From a virus (Duplodnaviria; Caudoviricetes): 60,761 bases of DNA. Where the stretch lies: positions 1 through 60,761 of the IMG/VR virus record IMGVR_UViG_3300009514_000027. The stretch is one strand, 5' to 3'. The translations under genes and the position numbers were made by a program. Positions 1 through 60,761 of this stretch are shown piece after piece (the first letter of the stretch is position 1; each line of letters opens with the position of its first letter). The notes below the pieces were generated by a model, which was not told where the DNA came from, made no database searches, and saw only the letters and a list, made by a program, of their open reading frames with translations.

Positions 1-170
1 ACTAAAGAAGTTAACCATCAGTCCCTTTTCTAAAAAAAAATACAATTTTTGGAGGGGACTCCGTATATCTAAACGGTAAAAAGAAAAAGATAAAGTAACC
101 TTTAAGTAAGCACGTAAGGATGAACAGGAAAGTTATGTACTATGGAATGCCTCCGTAACGGCAACTACTA

Positions 171-527
171 ATGGGATTTATACTCTTTATAATAGCAAGT
201 ATACTAAAATGGGCATTTTCTCCATTGCTTTATGTTTATAGTTCAATAAGGGCTGCTCAAAGTAAGGAATGGAACTCATGGCATAGGGTACTGGCTGTAT
301 CAAAAGACCAGCATGGCAATGTGTTAGGCAAGTACTTCTGGAATGATACTATGATAAAGAGTTATTCTCACCATAAGTTTGGACATGAGGATGAAACTAT
401 GTCATCTGTATATGGCAAGAATGAGAGAGATGGTACATTAAAGCCTTTAGGAGACTGGGTTAATAAGAACTTGAATAAGGTAGACCCAGGACACTCTATA
501 AAAGCTATTGAAGAAGACAAATTATAA
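171..527 (+). CDS. phage membrane-anchored hypothetical protein
   Basis: 118-aa ORF with hydrophobic N-terminus. The DQxGN...FGxxDETxSS...DPxH pattern resembles a small conserved phage family often found near lysis genes (recollection). Confidence 0.7.
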   Translation: MGFILFIIASILKWAFSPLLYVYSSIRAAQSKEWNSWHRVLAVSKDQHGNVLGKYFWNDTMIKSYSHHKFGHEDETMSSVYGKNERDGTLKPLGDWVNKNLNKVDPGHSIKAIEEDKL

Positions 528-555
528 CTTAGTAACCAATTAAATATATATATAT

Positions 556-861
556 ATGTTACCAGTATTTGCAGGACTTATTAACCTTATACCAGGAGTG
601 GCTAATACCATCCTTTCAATTATAAGGGAAAAGAAGAATACTAACCCAGCTACCAGTGCAGTACTTCCTGCGTTTGTAGCAGATGCTCATAACATTGCTG
701 ATGGTATAGAACTTAGTTCTAAAGCTATAGTAGGTTATGGAGTAGGTGGTGCTATTGTGTACTTTGCACTCCAGCAAGACCCACTTAATCTTTATGTACT
801 CGCTATTGGAGCTGTAGTAGTAATTGCTACCACGGTTGCCAAGGTGTTTGATAAGAAGTAA
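556..861 (+). CDS. small membrane protein, holin-like
   Basis: 101 aa, two C-terminal hydrophobic segments, basic C-terminus (FDKK), A-rich start region. Confidence 0.55.
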   Translation: MLPVFAGLINLIPGVANTILSIIREKKNTNPATSAVLPAFVADAHNIADGIELSSKAIVGYGVGGAIVYFALQQDPLNLYVLAIGAVVVIATTVAKVFDKK

Positions 862-944
862 CCCCCACAGGATTAGTAGTCCTGTGCCACCTCATCAGTA
901 AATTGAGGTTCATAAAAAAGACCAGCCCCGTAAGGCTGGCAAAT

Positions 945-984
945 AAATACCCTGTAGCTTTAGGTGGCAGGGTATTTTTTTTTT
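945..984 (+). terminator. intrinsic terminator
   Basis: AAATACCCTGT (945-955) pairs with GCAGGGTATTT (967-977), followed by a T-run to 984. Confidence 0.85.
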
Positions 985-1004
985 GAAAAATAGTTGCCAA
1001 AAAA

Positions 1005-1036
1005 TTTGGAAATCTCGATTTTATTTCGTATCTTTG
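1005..1036 (+). promoter_or_regulatory. Bacteroidota sigmaA-type promoter
   Basis: TTTG (1005-1008) + 20 nt + TATCTTTG (1029-1036), 14 nt before the ATG at 1051. Confidence 0.85.
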
Positions 1037-1050
1037 TATACTTTTAGCAA

Positions 1051-1278
1051 ATGGTCAGTAAATTAGAGATTAAAAGGGCTGGATGGCAACAGGAGAAATG
1101 TGAGGACATTGTTTATCACATATATAAGGAGGACAGCCTTTATCTCTTATTTAGAGACACTGATAATAACCTGATAAAGATATCCCTATTAAAGGATAAG
1201 AAGAAAGTCTGTCTATTCAGGGATAAGATAAAGGATGTAGTAGAACTTAAAAGGATAATGGAACTTTATAAAATATGA
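1051..1278 (+). CDS. hypothetical protein
   Basis: 75-aa ORF directly downstream of the promoter. Confidence 0.65.
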   Translation: MVSKLEIKRAGWQQEKCEDIVYHIYKEDSLYLLFRDTDNNLIKISLLKDKKKVCLFRDKIKDVVELKRIMELYKI

Positions 1279-1432
1279 AAAAACATTTTAATTTTGATTT
1301 TGACTTATTAAACATCTGTGGATGTTGTGAGAAAAAGTTTGGTATCTGTACATGTACTGATAAGAAAGAGTTTATAAAAGTACAAAAAGAGATACATGAA
1401 GCACTGGAGTAAAATAGACTTATCAAAATACA

Positions 1433-1807
1433 ATGGAGAGAAAGGTAATACCGATTAATACAGAGATACGGACATTCTTCAGACAGTATGTCCATGTTCT
1501 CAAACCAGTACTTAGGCTTAATGACAGAGAGTCAGATATTCTTGGGGAACTGATGTATGCTAATTATAAGCACAGGGACTTGAAGGAGGATATCAGGTAT
1601 AAGATTATCTTTGACTACGATACCAGAGTGGATATGAGAAATGCTTTAGGCATCTCTGAGGCTAGTTTTAATAATGGGCTTACTACTCTTAGAAGGTCAG
1701 GGATTATAGTTAATAACAGGCTATCTAAGAACTTACTTGTGATACCTGAATCTAATAGGTTCTGCCTGTCTTTTCTGTTTAGTATAAACCCTGCCAAAGA
1801 TGTTTAG
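1433..1807 (+). CDS. winged helix-turn-helix DNA-binding protein
   Basis: LNDRESDILGEL...RVDMRNALGISEASFNNGLTTLRRSGII fits an HTH/wHTH pattern. Confidence 0.65.
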   Translation: MERKVIPINTEIRTFFRQYVHVLKPVLRLNDRESDILGELMYANYKHRDLKEDIRYKIIFDYDTRVDMRNALGISEASFNNGLTTLRRSGIIVNNRLSKNLLVIPESNRFCLSFLFSINPAKDV

Positions 1808-2072
1808 TATTACAAGAGTATCAGAAACAGACTACTTTGAGATATTTAAGGATATATCTCTTAGATACAGAATACCTTTACCTATTGTAGAGAAGATTTG
1901 TATGTCTGAGTTTGGATGTCTGAGAGACACTATAAAAGGGGCAACAAGAAATGAAGCAGATACGTTTAAGAATGTAAGACCCCTTGGATTGGGGTTATTC
2001 TATTTTAGTCCTGGATTATTAAGCAGATATAAAAGACTACACGATGAAGGTAAGATTAAAAGTACTAAATGA
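1800..2072 (+). CDS. IHF/HU-like DNA-binding protein
   Basis: 90 aa, helical N-terminus (IFKDISLRYRIPLPIVEKI) then NVRPLGLGLFYF, resembling the HU/IHF I.GFG.F strand. Confidence 0.55.
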   Translation: MFSITRVSETDYFEIFKDISLRYRIPLPIVEKICMSEFGCLRDTIKGATRNEADTFKNVRPLGLGLFYFSPGLLSRYKRLHDEGKIKSTK

Positions 2073-2331
2073 CCTCTCTCGTCCTGGAACAGAGGATGAC
2101 CCTTTACCTATTGTTGTAAAGAGGAATGTAGTAACACACTACTATGTATACCCACAGGATATTATGTTTGTAGGAGAGGTTCTTGCAAAGGACGGTCGAG
2201 TCTACAAAGGAAGATGCAGGCTTGCCTGTAGGGAACTTGGAGAGGTAGTGGTAAAGCATTCTGTGGAAGCTGTAAGGAAAATGGCAGAACCTCCACAAAG
2301 AATAACAGTAAAAGGATTTAAACTATATTAA
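2044..2331 (+). CDS. hypothetical protein
   Basis: 95-aa ORF in a tightly packed operon. Confidence 0.65.
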   Translation: MKVRLKVLNDLSRPGTEDDPLPIVVKRNVVTHYYVYPQDIMFVGEVLAKDGRVYKGRCRLACRELGEVVVKHSVEAVRKMAEPPQRITVKGFKLY

Positions 2332-2342
2332 TTATATATAAG

Positions 2343-2702
2343 ATGGAAGAGCCAAATGGAGCGGAAGAAGTAAAGGAAGCTTTAGACAACTTTGTAGAAG
2401 AAATTAAAGACACGGAGAAAGTCAATGTTGTTGAGACATTGCAGGTTGAAGAGCCAAAACGTACTGAACCTACTGAAGAAGAGAAAGCAGCATTCAGAAA
2501 TCCTGCCCGTAATAAGGGAGAATCTTATGAGGCATATAGGTTCAGAAGGAATACTGTTAATAAGATTGAGAGGGCAAGACTTCGTGGATTTTGGTATTGG
2601 AGAAGTAAGAATATAGAAGACTTGAGAAAAGGTAAGAGGGATACCTCATGGGGAACCCTGTCTAATAAGATGCTGGAAGAAATGGCTAAACAGAGCAAGT
2701 AA
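2343..2702 (+). CDS. hypothetical protein
   Basis: 119 aa, acidic N-half and basic C-half, stop overlaps the next start. Confidence 0.7.
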   Translation: MEEPNGAEEVKEALDNFVEEIKDTEKVNVVETLQVEEPKRTEPTEEEKAAFRNPARNKGESYEAYRFRRNTVNKIERARLRGFWYWRSKNIEDLRKGKRDTSWGTLSNKMLEEMAKQSK

Positions 2703-2995
2703 TGATACCAAAGTCTCTAAAAATAGCAGGCCAGACCATTAAGGTTATCTTTAAAAAGGATTTAAAGCTTAGTGGTGAATCTGTATTTGGAGTATGGGAT
2801 TACAATAAGAATAAAATATACCTACAGGCTTCTACAAGAAAAGAACCTATAACACAGGAACAGATAGAGAGTACGTATATTCATGAATTAGTGCATGCTT
2901 GTTTGGAGATTCTAGGAGAGGAGGCTCTATCAAAGAAAGAAACCTTTGTAACAGGGTTTGCTAATTTATTACATCAGGCTTTAAAAAGTGAATAA
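2702..2995 (+). CDS. small zincin-like metallopeptidase
   Basis: TYIHELVHA (HExxH), preceded by G.WDY....IYL and followed by an E-containing helix. Confidence 0.7.
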   Translation: MIPKSLKIAGQTIKVIFKKDLKLSGESVFGVWDYNKNKIYLQASTRKEPITQEQIESTYIHELVHACLEILGEEALSKKETFVTGFANLLHQALKSE

Positions 2996-3567
2996 TGGGA
3001 CTATTAGTATTTGAAGGCAGTAAACTGGAGGTAACTCCTGAAACATTAACCATAGGTCCGTTCAAGACTATTTGGAATAGGGACAAGAGTAAGGGTAAAG
3101 AGATGGCTCTTGCAGAACTTGCATATGTTTACTATGCTGCAGACTTTAAATCTATATATAAGAATATCCCTATAGATGAAAGAGAGGATAGAATAGTACA
3201 GGATGTATTTGAAGGAAAGAAATGGAAGGCAGATATTGTTATAAAGAAGGCTATAGAGAAGTATAAGGAGTTGAACTTCTCTCAGACTATGGGACTATTG
3301 GAAGATGCAGAAGGAGCTATAGAGAAAGTACGTTCTTACCTTCGTGAGGTAGACCTTATGGAGACAGACAATAGTGGTAAACCTATCTATTCTGCTAAGG
3401 ATTTGATGGCAAACCTTAAAGGTCTTGGAGAGGTCGTAGCAGGTATCAAGAAACTAAAGGATGAGGTAGCTAAAGAGGTTAATGATAGTTCTACTATTAA
3501 GGGAGGAAATACTTTAGGGGCATTTGAAGACCCTGATTTTATAGATAGTGATGAAGACGATGGATAG
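2995..3567 (+). CDS. conserved protein upstream of terminase, putative terminase small subunit
   Basis: 190-aa helical protein overlapping the TerL start. Assignment is by position only. Confidence 0.5.
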   Translation: MGLLVFEGSKLEVTPETLTIGPFKTIWNRDKSKGKEMALAELAYVYYAADFKSIYKNIPIDEREDRIVQDVFEGKKWKADIVIKKAIEKYKELNFSQTMGLLEDAEGAIEKVRSYLREVDLMETDNSGKPIYSAKDLMANLKGLGEVVAGIKKLKDEVAKEVNDSSTIKGGNTLGAFEDPDFIDSDEDDG

Positions 3568-6500
3568 GTATTTCAAAAATACAGAGAATTTTAGGGAGGC
3601 AGCTCTTACCTACAAAGAAACGGGTAAGTTTTGTCCTTATCCCGTGAATTTCCACAGGAACTCTCAGTATATGAAGTTCTGGAAAGAGCAGGAGAAGCGT
3701 TCTTTAAGAGGTTATACTAGTAATGGTATTTCTATTACTGGATATCACTATTTCTATATGAATTTCTCACAAATATATATTGTAGTTTTTGATAAAAATT
3801 CTGTATCAGGAAAAGGAGGAAAAATAGTAGGAGAAAGGATATTAGATTTTCCAAGATTTTGGGACTCTGACTATGATTATTATTGGTACATAGAAGATGC
3901 TGAGAAGCAAGGAGAGCACGGGTCTGTATTAAAGTGCAGGGGTCGTGGGTATAGCTTCAAGGCTGCATCTATGTTAAACAGGAACTACTTTCTTATACCA
4001 GGAAGTAGGAATTATGCAGTAGCCTACGAGAAGGAGTACTTGACAAAGGAGGGGCTGCTGTCTAAGACCTGGGAAATGATGGATTTTGTCAATGAGCAGA
4101 CAGCTTGGGGCAAGAAACGTCAGTTCAAGAACAGTGACATGCATAGGAGGGCTTCCTATGAAGCTAATATAGGAGGAGTAAAGGTAGAGAAAGGCTATAA
4201 ATCGGAGATTATAGGAATCTCACTCAAGGATAATCCTCAGAAGATAAGGGGTAAGAGAGGAAAGCTGATATTGTTTGAGGAAGCAGGGATGTTTCCTGGG
4301 ATGTTAACAGCTTGGCAAATTGCCCGTTCTTCTATGGAACAAGGAAACATTGCTTTCGGTCAAATGCTTGCCTTTGGTACTGGTGGGTGTGTTTGTGCAG
4401 GAACAAAAGTATGGACAAGTTCAGGAGACCTTATAAACATAGAAGATTTAAAAAAAGAACAGGGAATTTTAGGTTATAGTGGAAATAGTGTTTCTAAAGA
4501 ACCTATTTCTTATTGGCAAAAACCTACAAAAAAATTATGTTATAGAATTACTACAAATACAGGAAGATTTTTGGAATGCAGTAAAGACCATCCTATCTTA
4601 AAAGCAGACGAGGAGAAAAAATTGTTTATTAATAAAAAAGTTTTTGTAAAAACCTCTACTTTAAAAGTAAATGATTTAATTGCTACTATAGAAGAAGTTC
4701 CTATTTTTGGAAACAACCGTATGTGGAATCCCAGAATTATAGGGTGGTTAATAGGAGACGGTACTTATGGTAAAGACCAGACTCCTTGTCTAAGTAACTG
4801 TGAAGAAGAAATAAATTCTTTTATAGAAAAAAATCTTACCACAAGTCTTAGAAAACAGTATATTACAAAAACAGGAAAAACATACAAAGAAACACATTTA
4901 AAAAACTTATGTCCTATTTTAAGAGAACTTGGTATTTATACACAAACTAAGTTAGATAAAACACTTCCTACTAGTATACATTCTTATTGTAAGCAAGATA
5001 TTTGCGAACTACTTGGTGGATTATTTGATACAGACGGTTATGTATCTTACAGAACTAATAGAAAAAGAGGAAGTAAGGTAATAGAGATAGGTATTTCTCA
5101 AGCATCTTTAAAACTCATTATAGAAATACAGTTACTTCTACAAAAGATAGGAATACACGGAATTATTAGAAAAAGACTGCCGAGAAAAAATAACCCCATA
5201 GATAGAAACTGTTGGTATGAGTTTGTCATATCTGACAAACTAAGTTTATTATCTTTCTCAAAAAACATAAAACTTTTCATAAAAACTAAACAAGATAGGA
5301 TAGATAAAATAAACAGTCTTTATGGTGAAAAAAGGATATCAGCACTTAGAGGGGACGGTGTTAGGTTTGAACGTATAGTAAGTATTGAGAATATAGGTAT
5401 ACAAAACATATACAATCTTACCGCAGCTTTAACTAACACATATATAGCAAATGGCATAATTACACACAATACTAAAGGAGCTGACTTTATGGCACTTGAA
5501 GAATTGTTCTATAGTCCTGAAGGGTATAATGTCCACTCTGTTCCCAACATCTGGGATAAGGGTAGGGAGAATACCAAGTCAGGATTTTTTATTCCAGTTA
5601 CCAGTAACTATGAAGGATACTATGACGAGAATGGCAACTCTGACGTAGACTCTGTACTGAAGAAGGAAGAGATAAACAGGAATAAGGTAAGAGAGAACTC
5701 TACTAATATCTCTGTAGTTACTCAGTATATTGCTGAGAACTGTATCACTCCTGCTGAAGCTGTATTAAGGACTACAGGTACAATCTTTCCAATCAATGAC
5801 CTTAAAGAAAGACTCTATGAACTTGAGACTAACCAGAGGATTATGGACTCTGATTTTGTAGGAAGACTTTCTATAAATTCAAGTAGTGGTAAAGTGGAGT
5901 GGAAACCAGACCCAGAAGTAAAACCTATCTATGACTACCCTATAAAGAATAATAAAAATCTTGATGGTGCTATAGTTATTTATGAACACCCATTCAAGGA
6001 TGAATCCACCCAACAAATACCTTATGGGATGTATATTGGTGGATGTTTAACACCTGGTGAAAAAGTAGTTACAGATAAAGGACTAAAGAATGTAGAAGAT
6101 GTTACTCTTGAAGATAAACTTGTAAATAAAGAGGGAGAGTTTGTTAAGGTAATAAATTTACAACAAAGACAAAAAATAGACCACGACACTTATGAATTAA
6201 AGATGTCTGGTACTTATAGGACTACAAAATTTACTAGGGGACATCCTATCTATACTAGTAAAACTCCGTATAACAGTAATAAAACTATAAATGAAAAAGG
6301 TTTTGATTTTAAGTTTAATCGTGCAGATACTTTAGATGTAGGAGACTGGACAAAATATCCTAACATTTATAATAAAGAAATTAGTTTTGACACTGTAACT
6401 TTATGGAACAATGCCGGTTATAGAAAAGATAAGTTAATCTCTGACCCTTTATCCCATAAAGATTTTTGGTGGTTTGTTGGTTTATGGTTAGGGGACGGAT

Positions 6501-58224: not shown

Positions 58225-58308
58225 TTTATTTTATATAGTTGAAAGTGCAAAAGTTAATAAGTATTCGGCACTATGTGTATAGCGTGTATTTACAAGTTAG
58301 GCGTAATT

Positions 58309-58740
58309 TTAGCGACCAGCCAACTGTTCAACATTGGAAGCGAAAATTATACCCTTATTGAATTGGTTTAAATCCATGTGGTTTCTATCACACATTTTAC
58401 CATTCTTACATCTTTCCACCATCACACCATGATTTTCTTTACACGGTATTATTCTAATTTCATCATATTCTAAATGTTCATATCCGCTTTCATGCGTTAT
58501 TTGAATTATTTTACCTTTAGAATAAACCGATACGAACTTACCTTTGCCAGTTGTGGGTATCATAGTTCCATTAAAACCGTCCATGTTAAAATTATGTATT
58601 TTAGAATAATACAATCTCTTTACATCACGTTTAAACCAACCAATCCAATATTTCCGCATCGACCATTTATACTTGAAGTTAAAAAAACTACGCCTAACAG
58701 CAAGTATATTCAATTGCGGTTTTTGTGCTTTATTTTCCAT
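58309..58740 (-). CDS. cassette-encoded hypothetical protein
   Basis: 143 aa. The N-terminus KPQLNILAVRRS is encoded by the left arm of the attC-like site. Confidence 0.7.
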   Translation of the reverse strand: MENKAQKPQLNILAVRRSFFNFKYKWSMRKYWIGWFKRDVKRLYYSKIHNFNMDGFNGTMIPTTGKGKFVSVYSKGKIIQITHESGYEHLEYDEIRIIPCKENHGVMVERCKNGKMCDRNHMDLNQFNKGIIFASNVEQLAGR

Positions 58741-58824
58741 TTATTTAAGTTATTTAAGTTATTACTAATTTGAAAGTATTATTCGTTTAAGTCCGCAACT
58801 AAATATACTTGCGAACCGTTATAA
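58692..58824 (+). repeat. complete attC-like site (133 bp)
   Basis: GCCTAAC-AGCAAGTATATTCAATTGCGG ... CCGCAACTAAATATACTTGC-GAACC-GTTATAA. Confidence 0.8.
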
Positions 58825-58842
58825 GCAAAGTTTAAACCCCGC

Positions 58843-59046
58843 CTACGCACGGAGTTCTTTTGCAGATGGCTCAAAGTAGCACATAGTCAAAGCAACTAAA
58901 TGTTTTCTACCTGTTTTTTCGGTTAGTTCCTTTGCCTTCTTCTTTGCTTCATCCTCTGTTCTAAACCAATCCTCGTATTGATGAGGATAGTCAGTTAATA
59001 CGAGCCATCTTTGCTCTTTTTTTGGTTCTGCTTTTGTCTTTGCCAT
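58843..59046 (-). CDS. cassette-encoded hypothetical protein
   Basis: 67 aa, F.TEDEAKKKAKEL helix motif. Confidence 0.6.
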   Translation of the reverse strand: MAKTKAEPKKEQRWLVLTDYPHQYEDWFRTEDEAKKKAKELTEKTGRKHLVALTMCYFEPSAKELRA

Positions 59047-59113
59047 TTTATTTGTTTTTACAGTTAATAATGCCCTCGCAAAAGGGGTTTTACTATCTTA
59101 TAGCCCCGATACG

Positions 59114-59392
59114 TTACCTGCCGTGCCCCGACAAATCAATCGGACTATCCCAATCTAACACCTCGATATTTTTATCAAGCACGGAAAGTTTGCCATTGCT
59201 ACTTAGCATTATCAGACATTGAGATATTCCCCTTTGCATCCTTTCGTTTGTTATTACCTGTTTAATCGTTCCATCGCTAAACTTTCCTAATAGCAGGAAA
59301 TTCTTTAATGATGGCATGGCAGGTAGCAAGGGCTTTACAAAACCCGCAACAGTGGTAGTTTTGGCTTTTGTGTTTTTAATTTTCTTCTTCAT
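59114..59392 (-). CDS. cassette-encoded hypothetical protein
   Basis: 92 aa. The stop codon is the TTA of the GTTA box and the start lies inside the attC-like loop. Confidence 0.65.
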   Translation of the reverse strand: MKKKIKNTKAKTTTVAGFVKPLLPAMPSLKNFLLLGKFSDGTIKQVITNERMQRGISQCLIMLSSNGKLSVLDKNIEVLDWDSPIDLSGHGR

Positions 59393-59449
59393 AGTTTTAC
59401 AGTTTAGTGTTATTTAATGTGGGCTTCGCCAAGCCCGATAATGTTATGT
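59321..59449 (+). repeat. attC-like site (129 bp) with mutated R'' (AGC instead of AAC)
   Basis: AGGTAGC-AAGGGCTTTACAAAACCCGC ... GTGGGCTTCGCCAAGCCC-GATAAT-GTTATGT. Confidence 0.7.
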
Positions 59450-59455
59450 GCAAGG

Positions 59456-59728
59456 CTACCATTCTCCTCCGTATTGGGCTGCATCCGCTTCTGCCTGTCC
59501 TTGTGCATTTTGTTCTGCTTCATATCTTGCTTGGTCGGCTTGGGCTTCTTGTTCTGCCTGTTCTTTTGCCATTTGCTCCTCTGCCCATTGTTGGTAGTGT
59601 CCATCGCTTCCATGATTAATGTCGCCCATACACATTGAGCAGATACTTTGTCCGTCAGGCACGGATGAGCCACATTGTGAACATTGTCTCATTTTGTTTT
59701 TCAATTTAACTTTAGTTTCGTTTTCCAT
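59456..59728 (-). CDS. small zinc-ribbon protein
   Basis: CSQC...CSMC followed by a Q/A/E-rich helical tail. Confidence 0.65.
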   Translation of the reverse strand: MENETKVKLKNKMRQCSQCGSSVPDGQSICSMCMGDINHGSDGHYQQWAEEQMAKEQAEQEAQADQARYEAEQNAQGQAEADAAQYGGEW

Positions 59729-59774
59729 AGTGTATTTAGTTTAATTTTTTCGTACCACCCCAAGCCAAGAGCCG

Positions 59775-60587
59775 TTAGCGTATTTGTTGTCCTAAAATAT
59801 TATAAATTTCTATATATTGAAAATTATCTGCTTTCTTACATTTACAATAAGTAATCTTTGAATATGCAAAAGCTCCATCATAATCCACTTGTTTAAGCCT
59901 AAAATAGGCTGAAATACAGTCTACGGAGTAGTCATACCACCTTTGGGTAGAACTCGTGCCAGAACCGCTTATTTTAACTAAATTTGCCCATTCTTCTATA
60001 TTTACGCTTTTTTGGACTATAAAATAGTCGTTATTGACTTCTGATGCTGTACTCCATTGTAGTACTTGTCTTGCACAATTAAAAAATAACAGTTCTATTG
60101 GTAAAGGAGTAGTATTTATGAAATAGGGGCAAAAAGTTACAAATCCATTACATCCTCCTCCTCCCCAAGCCCTCATTCTATAACAAAGAGTATAGTTTGC
60201 CCCTGTTGTTAGTCCTGAATATGATAATCCTGTACTGATAAAAGTACAGGAGTTGTCATAAAGATTATAAGGTCCAAAGGATTTATTATTACAGTTAGTA
60301 GAATTTCCTGCGTCTGCAAGTATATCTGTTCCTGCCGCAGCCAGTGATAGAAGTCCTGTTGAAGCTAATCTTAGACCTGTGTCCGCATCTGATTCGAATG
60401 CATAAGATGGAACTGCAACTGAACCTGTGCCTGCTTGAACTGTATCACCGGCGTTGGTAGGTGATAGTATTGTACCTGTTCTTACCCACTCAACGTTATA
60501 GGTAGAACCACTTCCGGCTTCTGTCAGGTCATCCCAGCTAGAACCATTGTAGAAGTATATATTAGTTCCATCGCTGAATATGTCCAA
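59775..60587 (-). CDS. chimeric ORF: fibre-like N-part plus Bacteroidota LPIEL domain with truncated T9SS-like tail
   Basis: PSYAFESDADTGL (fibre-type), then PLPIELL.F...WSTASEVNNDYF...YFRLKQVDYDG...IEIYNILGQ. The stop coincides with the GTTA box. Confidence 0.5.
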   Translation of the reverse strand: MDIFSDGTNIYFYNGSSWDDLTEAGSGSTYNVEWVRTGTILSPTNAGDTVQAGTGSVAVPSYAFESDADTGLRLASTGLLSLAAAGTDILADAGNSTNCNNKSFGPYNLYDNSCTFISTGLSYSGLTTGANYTLCYRMRAWGGGGCNGFVTFCPYFINTTPLPIELLFFNCARQVLQWSTASEVNNDYFIVQKSVNIEEWANLVKISGSGTSSTQRWYDYSVDCISAYFRLKQVDYDGAFAYSKITYCKCKKADNFQYIEIYNILGQQIR

Positions 60588-60708
60588 CGGCAGGCCTTTA
60601 CAGTCCTATTATTCTGAACTGGAATTGGAAAGAGTGCGGTCTCTTAACCAGTACGATATGAAACTCTACCGGTTCGTTAAAAGACGCCTGCAGAATACAG
60701 CAGAGTGA
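60580..60708 (+). pseudogene. C-terminal fragment resembling a sulfotransferase-family protein
   Basis: My translation is MSNGRPLQSYYSELELERVRSLNQYDMKLYRFVKRRLQNTAE*. The N..D..LY.F pattern resembles sulfotransferase C-termini. Higher GC than the phage. Confidence 0.35.
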
Positions 60709-60761
60709 ATGATGTAAAGATATGGTTTCGGGTAACTCTGGAAAAAAGAAACTTTTAAAAG

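Follow-up and report, generated by a model that had tools for sequence, protein, structure and literature searches.

The window analysed here, the whole IMG/VR virus record IMGVR_UViG_3300009514_000027 (60,761 bases, estimated 62% complete; Caudoviricetes), carries small minus-strand open reading frames (ORFs) between 57.4 and 60.6 kb, and two significant hairpin sites and one marginal site were recognised there within 1.1 kb, without an integrase. We read this stretch, at a probability of roughly 70%, as a decayed part of a phage integron-like cassette array, in which a cassette consists of a folding recombination site followed by a gene. By computational comparison with related loci, the hairpins form one structure family, cassettes with sharp borders have moved and been reordered, related arrays are linked to a recombinase gene, and the ORF of the best-preserved cassette (ORF1) has a hairpin-encoded N-terminus. 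An earlier note made from the sequence alone, below called the original prediction, had described the sites as attC sites from whose loops inverted cassette ORFs start.

In the mechanism that we propose, strand exchange would occur on the coding strand at the AAC box, the 5' foot of the hairpin. With the site upstream of the gene, the loops of long-loop sites would hold the start codon behind an A-rich leader, and the 3' arm and box would be translated as the first 14-25 residues. A Xer-like recombinase of 277 amino acids (aa), encoded beside an attI-like AAC junction, would excise, insert and reorder the cassettes. The acting enzyme is presumably this linked recombinase, and the substrate would be folded single-stranded DNA (ssDNA). 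The window itself shows two features of such arrays, a family hairpin on the gene-sense strand and a cassette made of hairpin and downstream ORF. It represents a partly decayed remnant of an array without its enzyme and resembles a cluster of sites lacking an integrase; neither a tyrosine recombinase nor an attI-like junction was found in the 60.7 kb of this 62%-complete record.

Hairpin #1 and its cassette

The best-preserved site and its cassette comprise the following features, in window coordinates (nt, nucleotides).

58692-58824, minus strand: element #1, 133 nt, member of the hairpin family
58818..58824, minus strand: 5' core box of element #1, sense TTATAAC, with the putative crossover in or beside AAC
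58813..58817, minus strand: unpaired 5-nt spacer, sense GGTTC, facing a single T on the 3' side; this 5:1 (or 4:1) asymmetry recurs family-wide
58793..58812, minus strand: 5' arm of hairpin #1, 20 nt
58720..58792, minus strand: loop of hairpin #1, 73 nt, A-rich, with leader and ORF1 ATG (58738-58740)
58700..58719, minus strand: 3' arm of hairpin #1, read as ORF1 codons 8-14 (PQLNILA)
58684..58698, minus strand: 3' core box GTTAGGC (58692-58698) and extension, translated VRRSF
58309..58740, minus strand: ORF1, 143 aa, conserved core from residue 23 (KYKW), no Pfam or PHROG family
58296..58310, minus strand: 3' end of cassette 1, sense AAAATTACGCCTAAC; no relative is homologous past AAC

The arms of hairpin #1, 73 nt apart, form 18 of 20 Watson-Crick pairs; the two mismatches become G.T wobbles on the minus strand, which leaves none of the 20 positions unpaired, and TAAC and GTTA form further pairs. 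On the plus strand the element reads GCCTAAC (58692-58698) and GTTATAA (58818-58824), with spacers of 1 nt on the AAC side and 5 nt (GAACC, 58813-58817) on the GTT side, as the original prediction had noted in placing the longer spacer beside GTT. The ORF1 ATG lies 18 nt upstream of the 3' arm and is preceded by an A-rich run, matching the A-rich initiation region that had been described for the loop. Codons 8-18 are KPQLNILAVRRS, and the 3' arm and GTTAGGC box read PQLNILAVRR. The stop codon TAA (58309-58311) lies 6 nt from GTTAGGC (58296-58302), and a 15-nt inverted repeat (58296-58310 and 58684-58698, complementary at 14 of 15 positions) brackets the remainder of ORF1. A segment around the ORF1 body that would invert via this repeat was considered and rejected: the complementarity of cassette ends explains the repeat, which recurs in other cassettes.

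Folding energies of the window hairpins were not significant (z -0.8 to -1.1), and it is the family model, with the comparative data, that makes the hairpins significant. The motif GTTAGGC by itself is uninformative, with 6 occurrences against 4.9 expected.

A hairpin family conserved in structure

Read on the gene-sense strand, members of the family follow the layout RYYYAAC, 5-nt spacer, arm of about 20 base pairs (bp), loop, arm of about 20 bp, T, GTTRRRY, and the loop region of each window site holds the ATG of its downstream ORF. A complete phage genome of 76,304 bases (G001), reached through a relative of ORF1, was scanned for the geometry AAC, 5 nt, arm, loop, arm, 1 nt, GTT. Ten sites were found within 4.3 kb, all on the gene-sense strand; whole-genome block shuffles of G001 gave 2-10 hits, spread over both strands. 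This phage is distant kin of the window, with five window proteins matching, weakly, at 24-31% amino-acid identity.

For structural comparison, 25 long-type elements from the window and 15 loci were assembled. Their own arms pair at 17.0 of 18 positions, compared with 8.5 +/- 2.8 between arms of different elements (n=600), at a mean arm identity of 35%; the TAAC and TGTT columns are invariant. In an unfitted MAFFT alignment 79.7% of cells are paired, compared with 61.0 +/- 1.4 in shuffles (0/500), with a covariation score of 0.428 versus 0.156 (0/500). Stem pairs changed on both sides number 18 of 20, and slid-partner controls were 34-44% paired. As in attC sites, the imperfect palindrome is conserved in structure and not in sequence, and inverted core boxes of the form RYYYAAC/GTTRRRY stand at the ends of element #1 (TTATAAC, GTTAGGC).

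The whole window was searched, without filters, with a covariance model built from the MAFFT alignment. Element #1, a training member, scored 100.5 bits, and element #2 scored 40.1 bits without being in the training set. Elsewhere in the window the best scores were 19.7 bits (expect value, E, 0.052), on the reverse strand of element #1, and 16.7 bits (E 0.23) for the next unrelated hit.

Several structural details accompany the family. A G.T wobble 13-14 bp up the stem (5' arm AGT facing 3' arm ATT) is conserved at one position in 15-16 of the 25 elements, in the window at 58706-58708 pairing with 58804-58806; it might substitute for the bulged bases of attC sites as a mark of strand or position. 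At loci upstream of recombinases, element lengths fall into classes of about 115-128 nt (loops of 60-78) and about 79-91 nt (loops of 31-42), with a few of 43-66 nt. In G001 a longer hairpin with one-base bulges, seen by eye (L011:14701-14845), holds a 45-aa ORF in its loop, and after it comes a nearly empty cassette, about 29 nt long, with GTTAGCAAA and TTTGCTAAC on either side.

Cassette borders and reordering

Searches with ORF1 gave 76 matching proteins, and relatives are encoded at 48 metagenome loci and 6 viral loci. The N-terminal extension is present in nineteen aligned rows, namely the window, L013-L029 and L031; a contig end truncates L030. Hairpin #1 is intact in 13 of the 19, in 12 different upstream contexts (L023 shares that of L024), and in all 12 the similarity begins exactly at AAC|GGTTC, the preceding 4-6 bases being different; the bases 5' of AAC in element #1 are part of the neighbouring cassette. 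Six rows (L016, L018, L021, L025, L027, L031) keep the extension with an unrecognisable 5' arm. At the 3' border, similarity stops right after TAA-AATTAC(G/A)C(C/A)TAAC (GCCTAAC in the window) in 15 of the 19 rows; L020 and L022 were not evaluated, in L015 the box is intact and the contig ends, and in L031 the box is mutated. Since the 5' break falls at AAC and the 3' end after the box, the mobile unit consists of a hairpin and its downstream ORF. The site therefore lies 5' of its gene, whereas attC stands 3' of the ORF in integron cassettes. The inversion of the ORFs relative to typical integron cassettes, which had originally been deduced from a spacer rule, is thus established by homology breakpoints instead.

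Four G001 cassettes recur at 97.7-100% identity in a different order in two further loci (L066, L069), with block ends at AAC boxes. Loci whose recombinase gene is 100% identical to that of G001 carry different arrays, and the recombinase flank is joined at one and the same AAC box in every locus, down to 78% identity. Between neighbouring sites, the 3' box of the first is complementary to the 5' box of the second over at least 5 nt beyond the core in 15 of 30 pairs. The two boxes of a single site are complementary over at least 4 nt beyond the core in only 2 of 48 cases, and random pairs in 6%. Closure of excised cassettes on themselves would be expected to leave such box complementarity. Cassette ends are thus mutually complementary, with breakpoints at AAC at a precision that does not resolve the exact phosphodiester.

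Linkage to a Xer-like recombinase

In G001 at least 10 cassettes form an array that ends beside a tyrosine recombinase of 277 aa. It matches Pfam Phage_integrase (9.9e-39) and an N-terminal SAM-like domain, and its catalytic motifs are readable. Its best NCBIfam models are XerA_Arch, XerD and integron integrase, and the nearest solved structures are XerA 4a8e (4e-35), XerA 5hxy and XerD 1a0p. The enzyme shares with XerA and XerC/D the best sequence matches; it differs in scoring below the equivalog cut-offs, in being phage-encoded beside a cassette array and in having no evident dif-like duplex site.

Homologues of this recombinase, 57-100% identical and including several near-duplicates, were collected from 27 viral loci. 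Upstream of them, in 89.9 kb, 65 scanner hairpins lie on the recombinase strand and 4 on the other; downstream there are 6 and 4 on the two strands (161 kb, 27 loci).

The nearest named relatives of the G001 enzyme are integrases of Polaribacter and Cellulophaga phages (29-32% identity), which were taken as signs of temperate life (Bartlau et al. 2021, PMC8776804); the main text of that paper mentions neither integron nor cassette nor hairpin. A loose scan found look-alike sites upstream of such integrases and in Polaribacter phage P12002L, unconfirmed by the covariance model. The sole model hit in cultured phages is L063:14499-14628 (plus strand) in P12002L (34.6 bits, E 8e-5); it is flanked by gp23, the tail protein gene, and gp24, at a distance from the methyltransferase region to which the published attC sites map. 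Among Freya_1 to Freya_10, ten isolates of one Polaribacter phage, the genome length ranges from 43,978 to 48,920 bases and the integrase position in the record shifts from 71 to 4168, which suggests a variable block of small genes directly upstream of the integrase.

Folded strand and the possibility of an RNA element

The strand was assessed with strand-symmetric detection on 61 elements. On the sense strand, 100 G.T cells compare with 21 A.C cells (p = 1.6e-13), where base composition predicts about 1.1:1. This G.T excess points to folding of the sense strand, with the crossover in the AAC box at its 5' foot. In integrons, the strand with the AAC box at its 5' foot when folded is said, in work by Bouvier in 2005 and MacDonald in 2006, to be the bottom strand. 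If so, the coding strand plays the bottom-strand role here, and the genes run opposite to those of integron cassettes. In agreement with this, the order in G001 (array, AAC junction, recombinase reading away) is the reverse complement of the order intI-attI-cassette.

The same wobbles on the sense strand, the leaders and start codons in the loops, and the orientation of all elements with their genes would also suit hairpins that are primarily RNA elements, serving processing or translation control of a polycistronic early transcript and spread by homologous or illegitimate recombination at the boxes, a route suggested for promoter/stem-loop modules in T4-type phages. As Rfam gave 0 matches at E <= 0.1 for the window region and the G001 array, this would be a new RNA element. 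We consider it unlikely that this accounts for the data, for it leaves unexplained why breaks fall exactly at AAC in 12 contexts, why cassette ends are complementary across a 400-nt ORF when a site's own boxes pair only by TAAC/GTTA, how cassettes of 97.7-100% identity came to be reordered, and why there is a fixed junction beside a tyrosine recombinase. A role as RNA could exist alongside recombination.

Relation to integrons and other known systems

The cassettes of the phages share with integron attC cassettes the inverted AAC/GTT core boxes, a crossover in the AAC/GTT core, an imperfect palindrome with conserved structure, cassette ends that are complementary so that the site in the array is a hybrid, an array end at a fixed junction beside a tyrosine recombinase, and shuffling among near-identical genomes. 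They differ in that the site lies 5' of the gene, the coding strand is folded and start codons lie in the loop; in the 5:1 internal loop and the regular stem of about 20 bp, with a G.T wobble at stem position 13-14 and neither a conserved bulge with the extrahelical bases of attC nor a near-symmetric central spacer; and in a recombinase of 277 aa that is Xer-like and has no IntI insertion.

Accordingly, the description of the sites as canonical attC did not hold, given the 5:1 internal loop, the lack of bulged bases and the lack of IntI. A related explanation would have genuine bacterial attC sites and cassettes acquired from host integrons and serviced by a host IntI. The core boxes fit RYYYAAC/GTTRRRY, and 133 nt is within the length range generally given for attC. 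Integrons and attC clusters were moreover described in 21 phages, the clusters in 17 of them including a Polaribacter phage, and five phage sites were recombined by IntI1 (Qi et al. 2023, PMC9892861, in the portion of the article considered here). This origin is nevertheless a shade less probable than an RNA element: the regular 5:1 internal loop and the 20-bp stem without bulged bases, the polarity of the ORFs opposite to classical cassettes, the tie of the arrays to a phage Xer-like enzyme in 27 loci, and the non-cassette members of the ORF1 family in phage-like gene neighbourhoods all speak against it. The same portion of PMC9892861 agrees with the present data in that its clusters consist of attC-like sites that phages carry with no integrase next to them, as the window does, and that in its Polaribacter phage the loose scan finds look-alike sites on the gene-sense strand; it differs in regarding the sites as parts of bacterial integrons that IntI1 recognises, and it reports no Xer-like recombinase ('Xer' occurs 0 times), no reversed polarity and no start codons within sites. 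Literature searches found no description of a phage system of hairpin cassettes with a Xer-like recombinase.

In sedentary chromosomal integrons, inverted cassettes, for example of toxin-antitoxin genes, occur as exceptions in arrays of normal polarity and have their own promoters. In them, too, the ORF runs against its usual orientation with respect to attC; in the phage array, every cassette is reversed and the ORF may begin inside the site. The PeSL (promoter-early stem-loop) modules of T4-type phages are repeated stem-loop regulatory modules thought to recombine by homology. Their stem-loops, too, flank small accessory genes in plastic phage regions and are linked to gene shuffling, whereas the phage cassettes break at a fixed trinucleotide, have self-complementary ends and lie next to a dedicated recombinase.

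Elements #2 and #3

Two further sites of the window, both decayed, were assigned as follows.

59321..59449, minus strand: element #2, decayed, 40.1 bits, E 2e-6, homologous to G001 element A
59443-59449: 5' box of element #2, ACATAAC
59438-59442: spacer of element #2
59418-59437: 5' arm of element #2
59349-59417: loop of element #2
59329-59348: 3' arm of element #2
59321-59327: 3' box of element #2, GCTACCT
59114..59392, minus strand: ORF2, 92 aa from the loop ATG, or 67 aa from the alternative in-frame ATG 59315-59317
59113..59122, minus strand: 3' end of cassette 2, sense GGCAGGTAAC, with the ORF2 stop inside, read directly
59675..59780, minus strand: element #3, marginal, 22.7 bits, E 0.012, boxes kept and stem largely lost

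Eight unpaired positions (four model pairs) of element #2 were flagged by cmsearch. The end of cassette 2 (59113..59122) is complementary at 9 of 10 positions to the region of the 3' box of element #2, and the ORF2 TAA (59114-59116) lies inside GTTA (59113-59116); together with the ORF1 stop, this confirms the placement of stop codons in or beside GTTA. The loop ATG of ORF2 (59390-59392) lies between the arms of element #2, and AGFVKPLLPA spans the 3' arm and box. A zinc-ribbon ORF (59456..59728) has its ATG in the loop region of element #3. A search for ORF2 homologues returned ORF2 itself only.

Predicted translation starts and hairpin-encoded N-termini

Both ATGs that had been assigned to hairpin loops are found there (58738-58740 in the loop of hairpin #1, 59390-59392 between the arms of element #2), and the arm is in frame in both cases. 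For ORF1, relatives outside cassettes allow a comparison. In 12 of 35 aligned homologues M stands exactly at the conserved KYKW core; homologues outside cassettes start with MKYKW and are without the 22-residue hairpin-encoded N-terminus, and the hairpin-less loci read ATG AAA TAT in unrelated, phage-like gene neighbourhoods. Cassette forms have no start codon near the core and always keep the in-frame loop ATG despite loop indels, with N-terminal extensions of about 19-28 residues and element lengths of 135-138 nt. In L029 three stem pairs are changed on both sides and the peptide PQLNILAV becomes QQLNIAGV; as these compensatory changes of the arms alter the peptide, structure constrains the coding sequence there. 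Computational comparison thus places the ORF1 start codon and about 22 N-terminal residues in the loop, 3' arm and box, as far as sequence can tell, and translation would start at the loop ATG. For ORF2, two starts are possible on the sequence, the loop ATG 59390-59392 and the ATG 59315-59317 directly past the box, so that the claim of a start and N-terminus inside the site stands for ORF1 and is ambiguous for ORF2.

The ORFs might alternatively start past the hairpin, ORF1 at M28 (58657-58659) and ORF2 at M26 (59315-59317), the upstream in-frame stretch being untranslated. Both ATGs are present in frame, that of ORF2 directly follows the 3' box with nothing against it, and in a weak AlphaFold2 model of ORF1 (mean predicted local distance difference test, pLDDT, 64.8; predicted template modelling score 0.47) residues 1-20 have a pLDDT of about 50. 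A start at M28, however, would remove KYKWS, a motif retained by all short homologues; most relatives have L in place of M28, and loop indels leave the frame open in every cassette form. As an account of both ORFs this is the least probable of the three alternatives.

Starts were surveyed in 46 distinct elements upstream of recombinases. The loop ATG opens the downstream ORF in 16, nearly all of the long class (115-128 nt), and one is unclassed (G001 element K, with an ATG at the top of the 5' arm). The GTT core is in frame as Val in 15 of 20 long elements. Peptides are alike where arms are related (QLNILAV, ALNKALV, ALNKPVV) and otherwise share little beyond the Val codon at GTT, so that the expectation of similar N-terminal peptides in unrelated proteins is only weakly borne out. 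Nor is the site a freely portable start module, as had been proposed: the hairpin travels with its own ORF, and in 29 of the 46 elements the ORF starts after the hairpin.

Evidence weighing against a cassette array

Several observations count against an active or integron-like array. Nothing in the window shows present-day activity, the recombinase being absent there. Element #2 has a mutated 3' core (GCT instead of GTT), and its minimum-energy fold has no long-range stem, a local 6-bp hairpin competing. The G001 recombinase scores 198 bits with XerA_Arch, below the cut-off of 220, and 164.5 bits in two stretches with the integron integrase model TIGR02249, below the cut-off of 265. It is without the IntI-specific insertion that is thought necessary for recombination of folded sites, and IntI4 (2a3v) aligns over residues 17-172 only; the IntI with extra domain beside attI that makes up a complete integron was therefore not found. 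At E <= 0.01 the covariance model did not pick up the look-alike sites given by the loose scanner in Leef_1, Freya_10 and P12002L. The wobble bias of the sense strand is equally expected from mRNA structure. Complementarity is slight in half of the adjacent box pairs (15 of 30), perhaps owing to sites missed by the scanner, and the ORFs beginning after the hairpin in 29 of 46 elements do so within 150 nt. Single-strand transposition of the IS200/IS605 type (subterminal hairpin, tetranucleotide target) was provisionally set aside, as there is no Y1 transposase and a tyrosine recombinase is adjacent.

Further features of the window

One more small ORF lies between cassettes 2 and 1.

58843..59046, minus strand: 67-aa ORF, ending in GCTTATAAC

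No family hairpin was recognised upstream of it (best 10.9 bits, E 4.1, at 58985-59105). Pfam and PHROG searches with eight small window ORFs gave nothing useful except a weak zinc-ribbon signal. Against the phage collection, neither the cassette region as DNA nor ORF1 as protein had a match, and the remaining small window ORFs had no matches in any fetched locus. The plus-strand module 3548-56938 contains giant ORFs of 1439, 1202, 1408, 1087, 1337, 2309 and 1951 aa. An ORF of 270 aa (59775..60587) has TTG as its sole start, and its frame breaks off near 60590; from 60590 to 60761 the sequence seems to change in character and includes a short plus-strand ORF; this may be an assembly or genome-end junction.

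Significance

Taken alone, the window is a smaller matter, a partly decayed remnant without its enzyme. Integron-type capture is thought to need the IntI-specific domain and sites behind promoterless genes. Integron-like cassette logic tied to a minimal Xer-like enzyme, with reversed polarity and genes beginning inside the site, is a different design, and standard integron finders, which rely on IntI and canonical attC, would miss such systems. It offers a concrete mechanism for the mosaicism of small genes in phage early regions, and in L029 constraints from DNA structure and from protein coding overlap on the same nucleotides. We suggest, tentatively and with less confidence than the cassette array itself, that phages of Bacteroidota-like hosts may run their own integron analogue, in which the coding-strand hairpin would be both the ssDNA substrate of a minimal Xer-like enzyme and the mRNA leader that presents the start codon. 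If this is true, each captured promoterless gene would bring its own translation-initiation region and a hairpin-encoded N-terminal tag.

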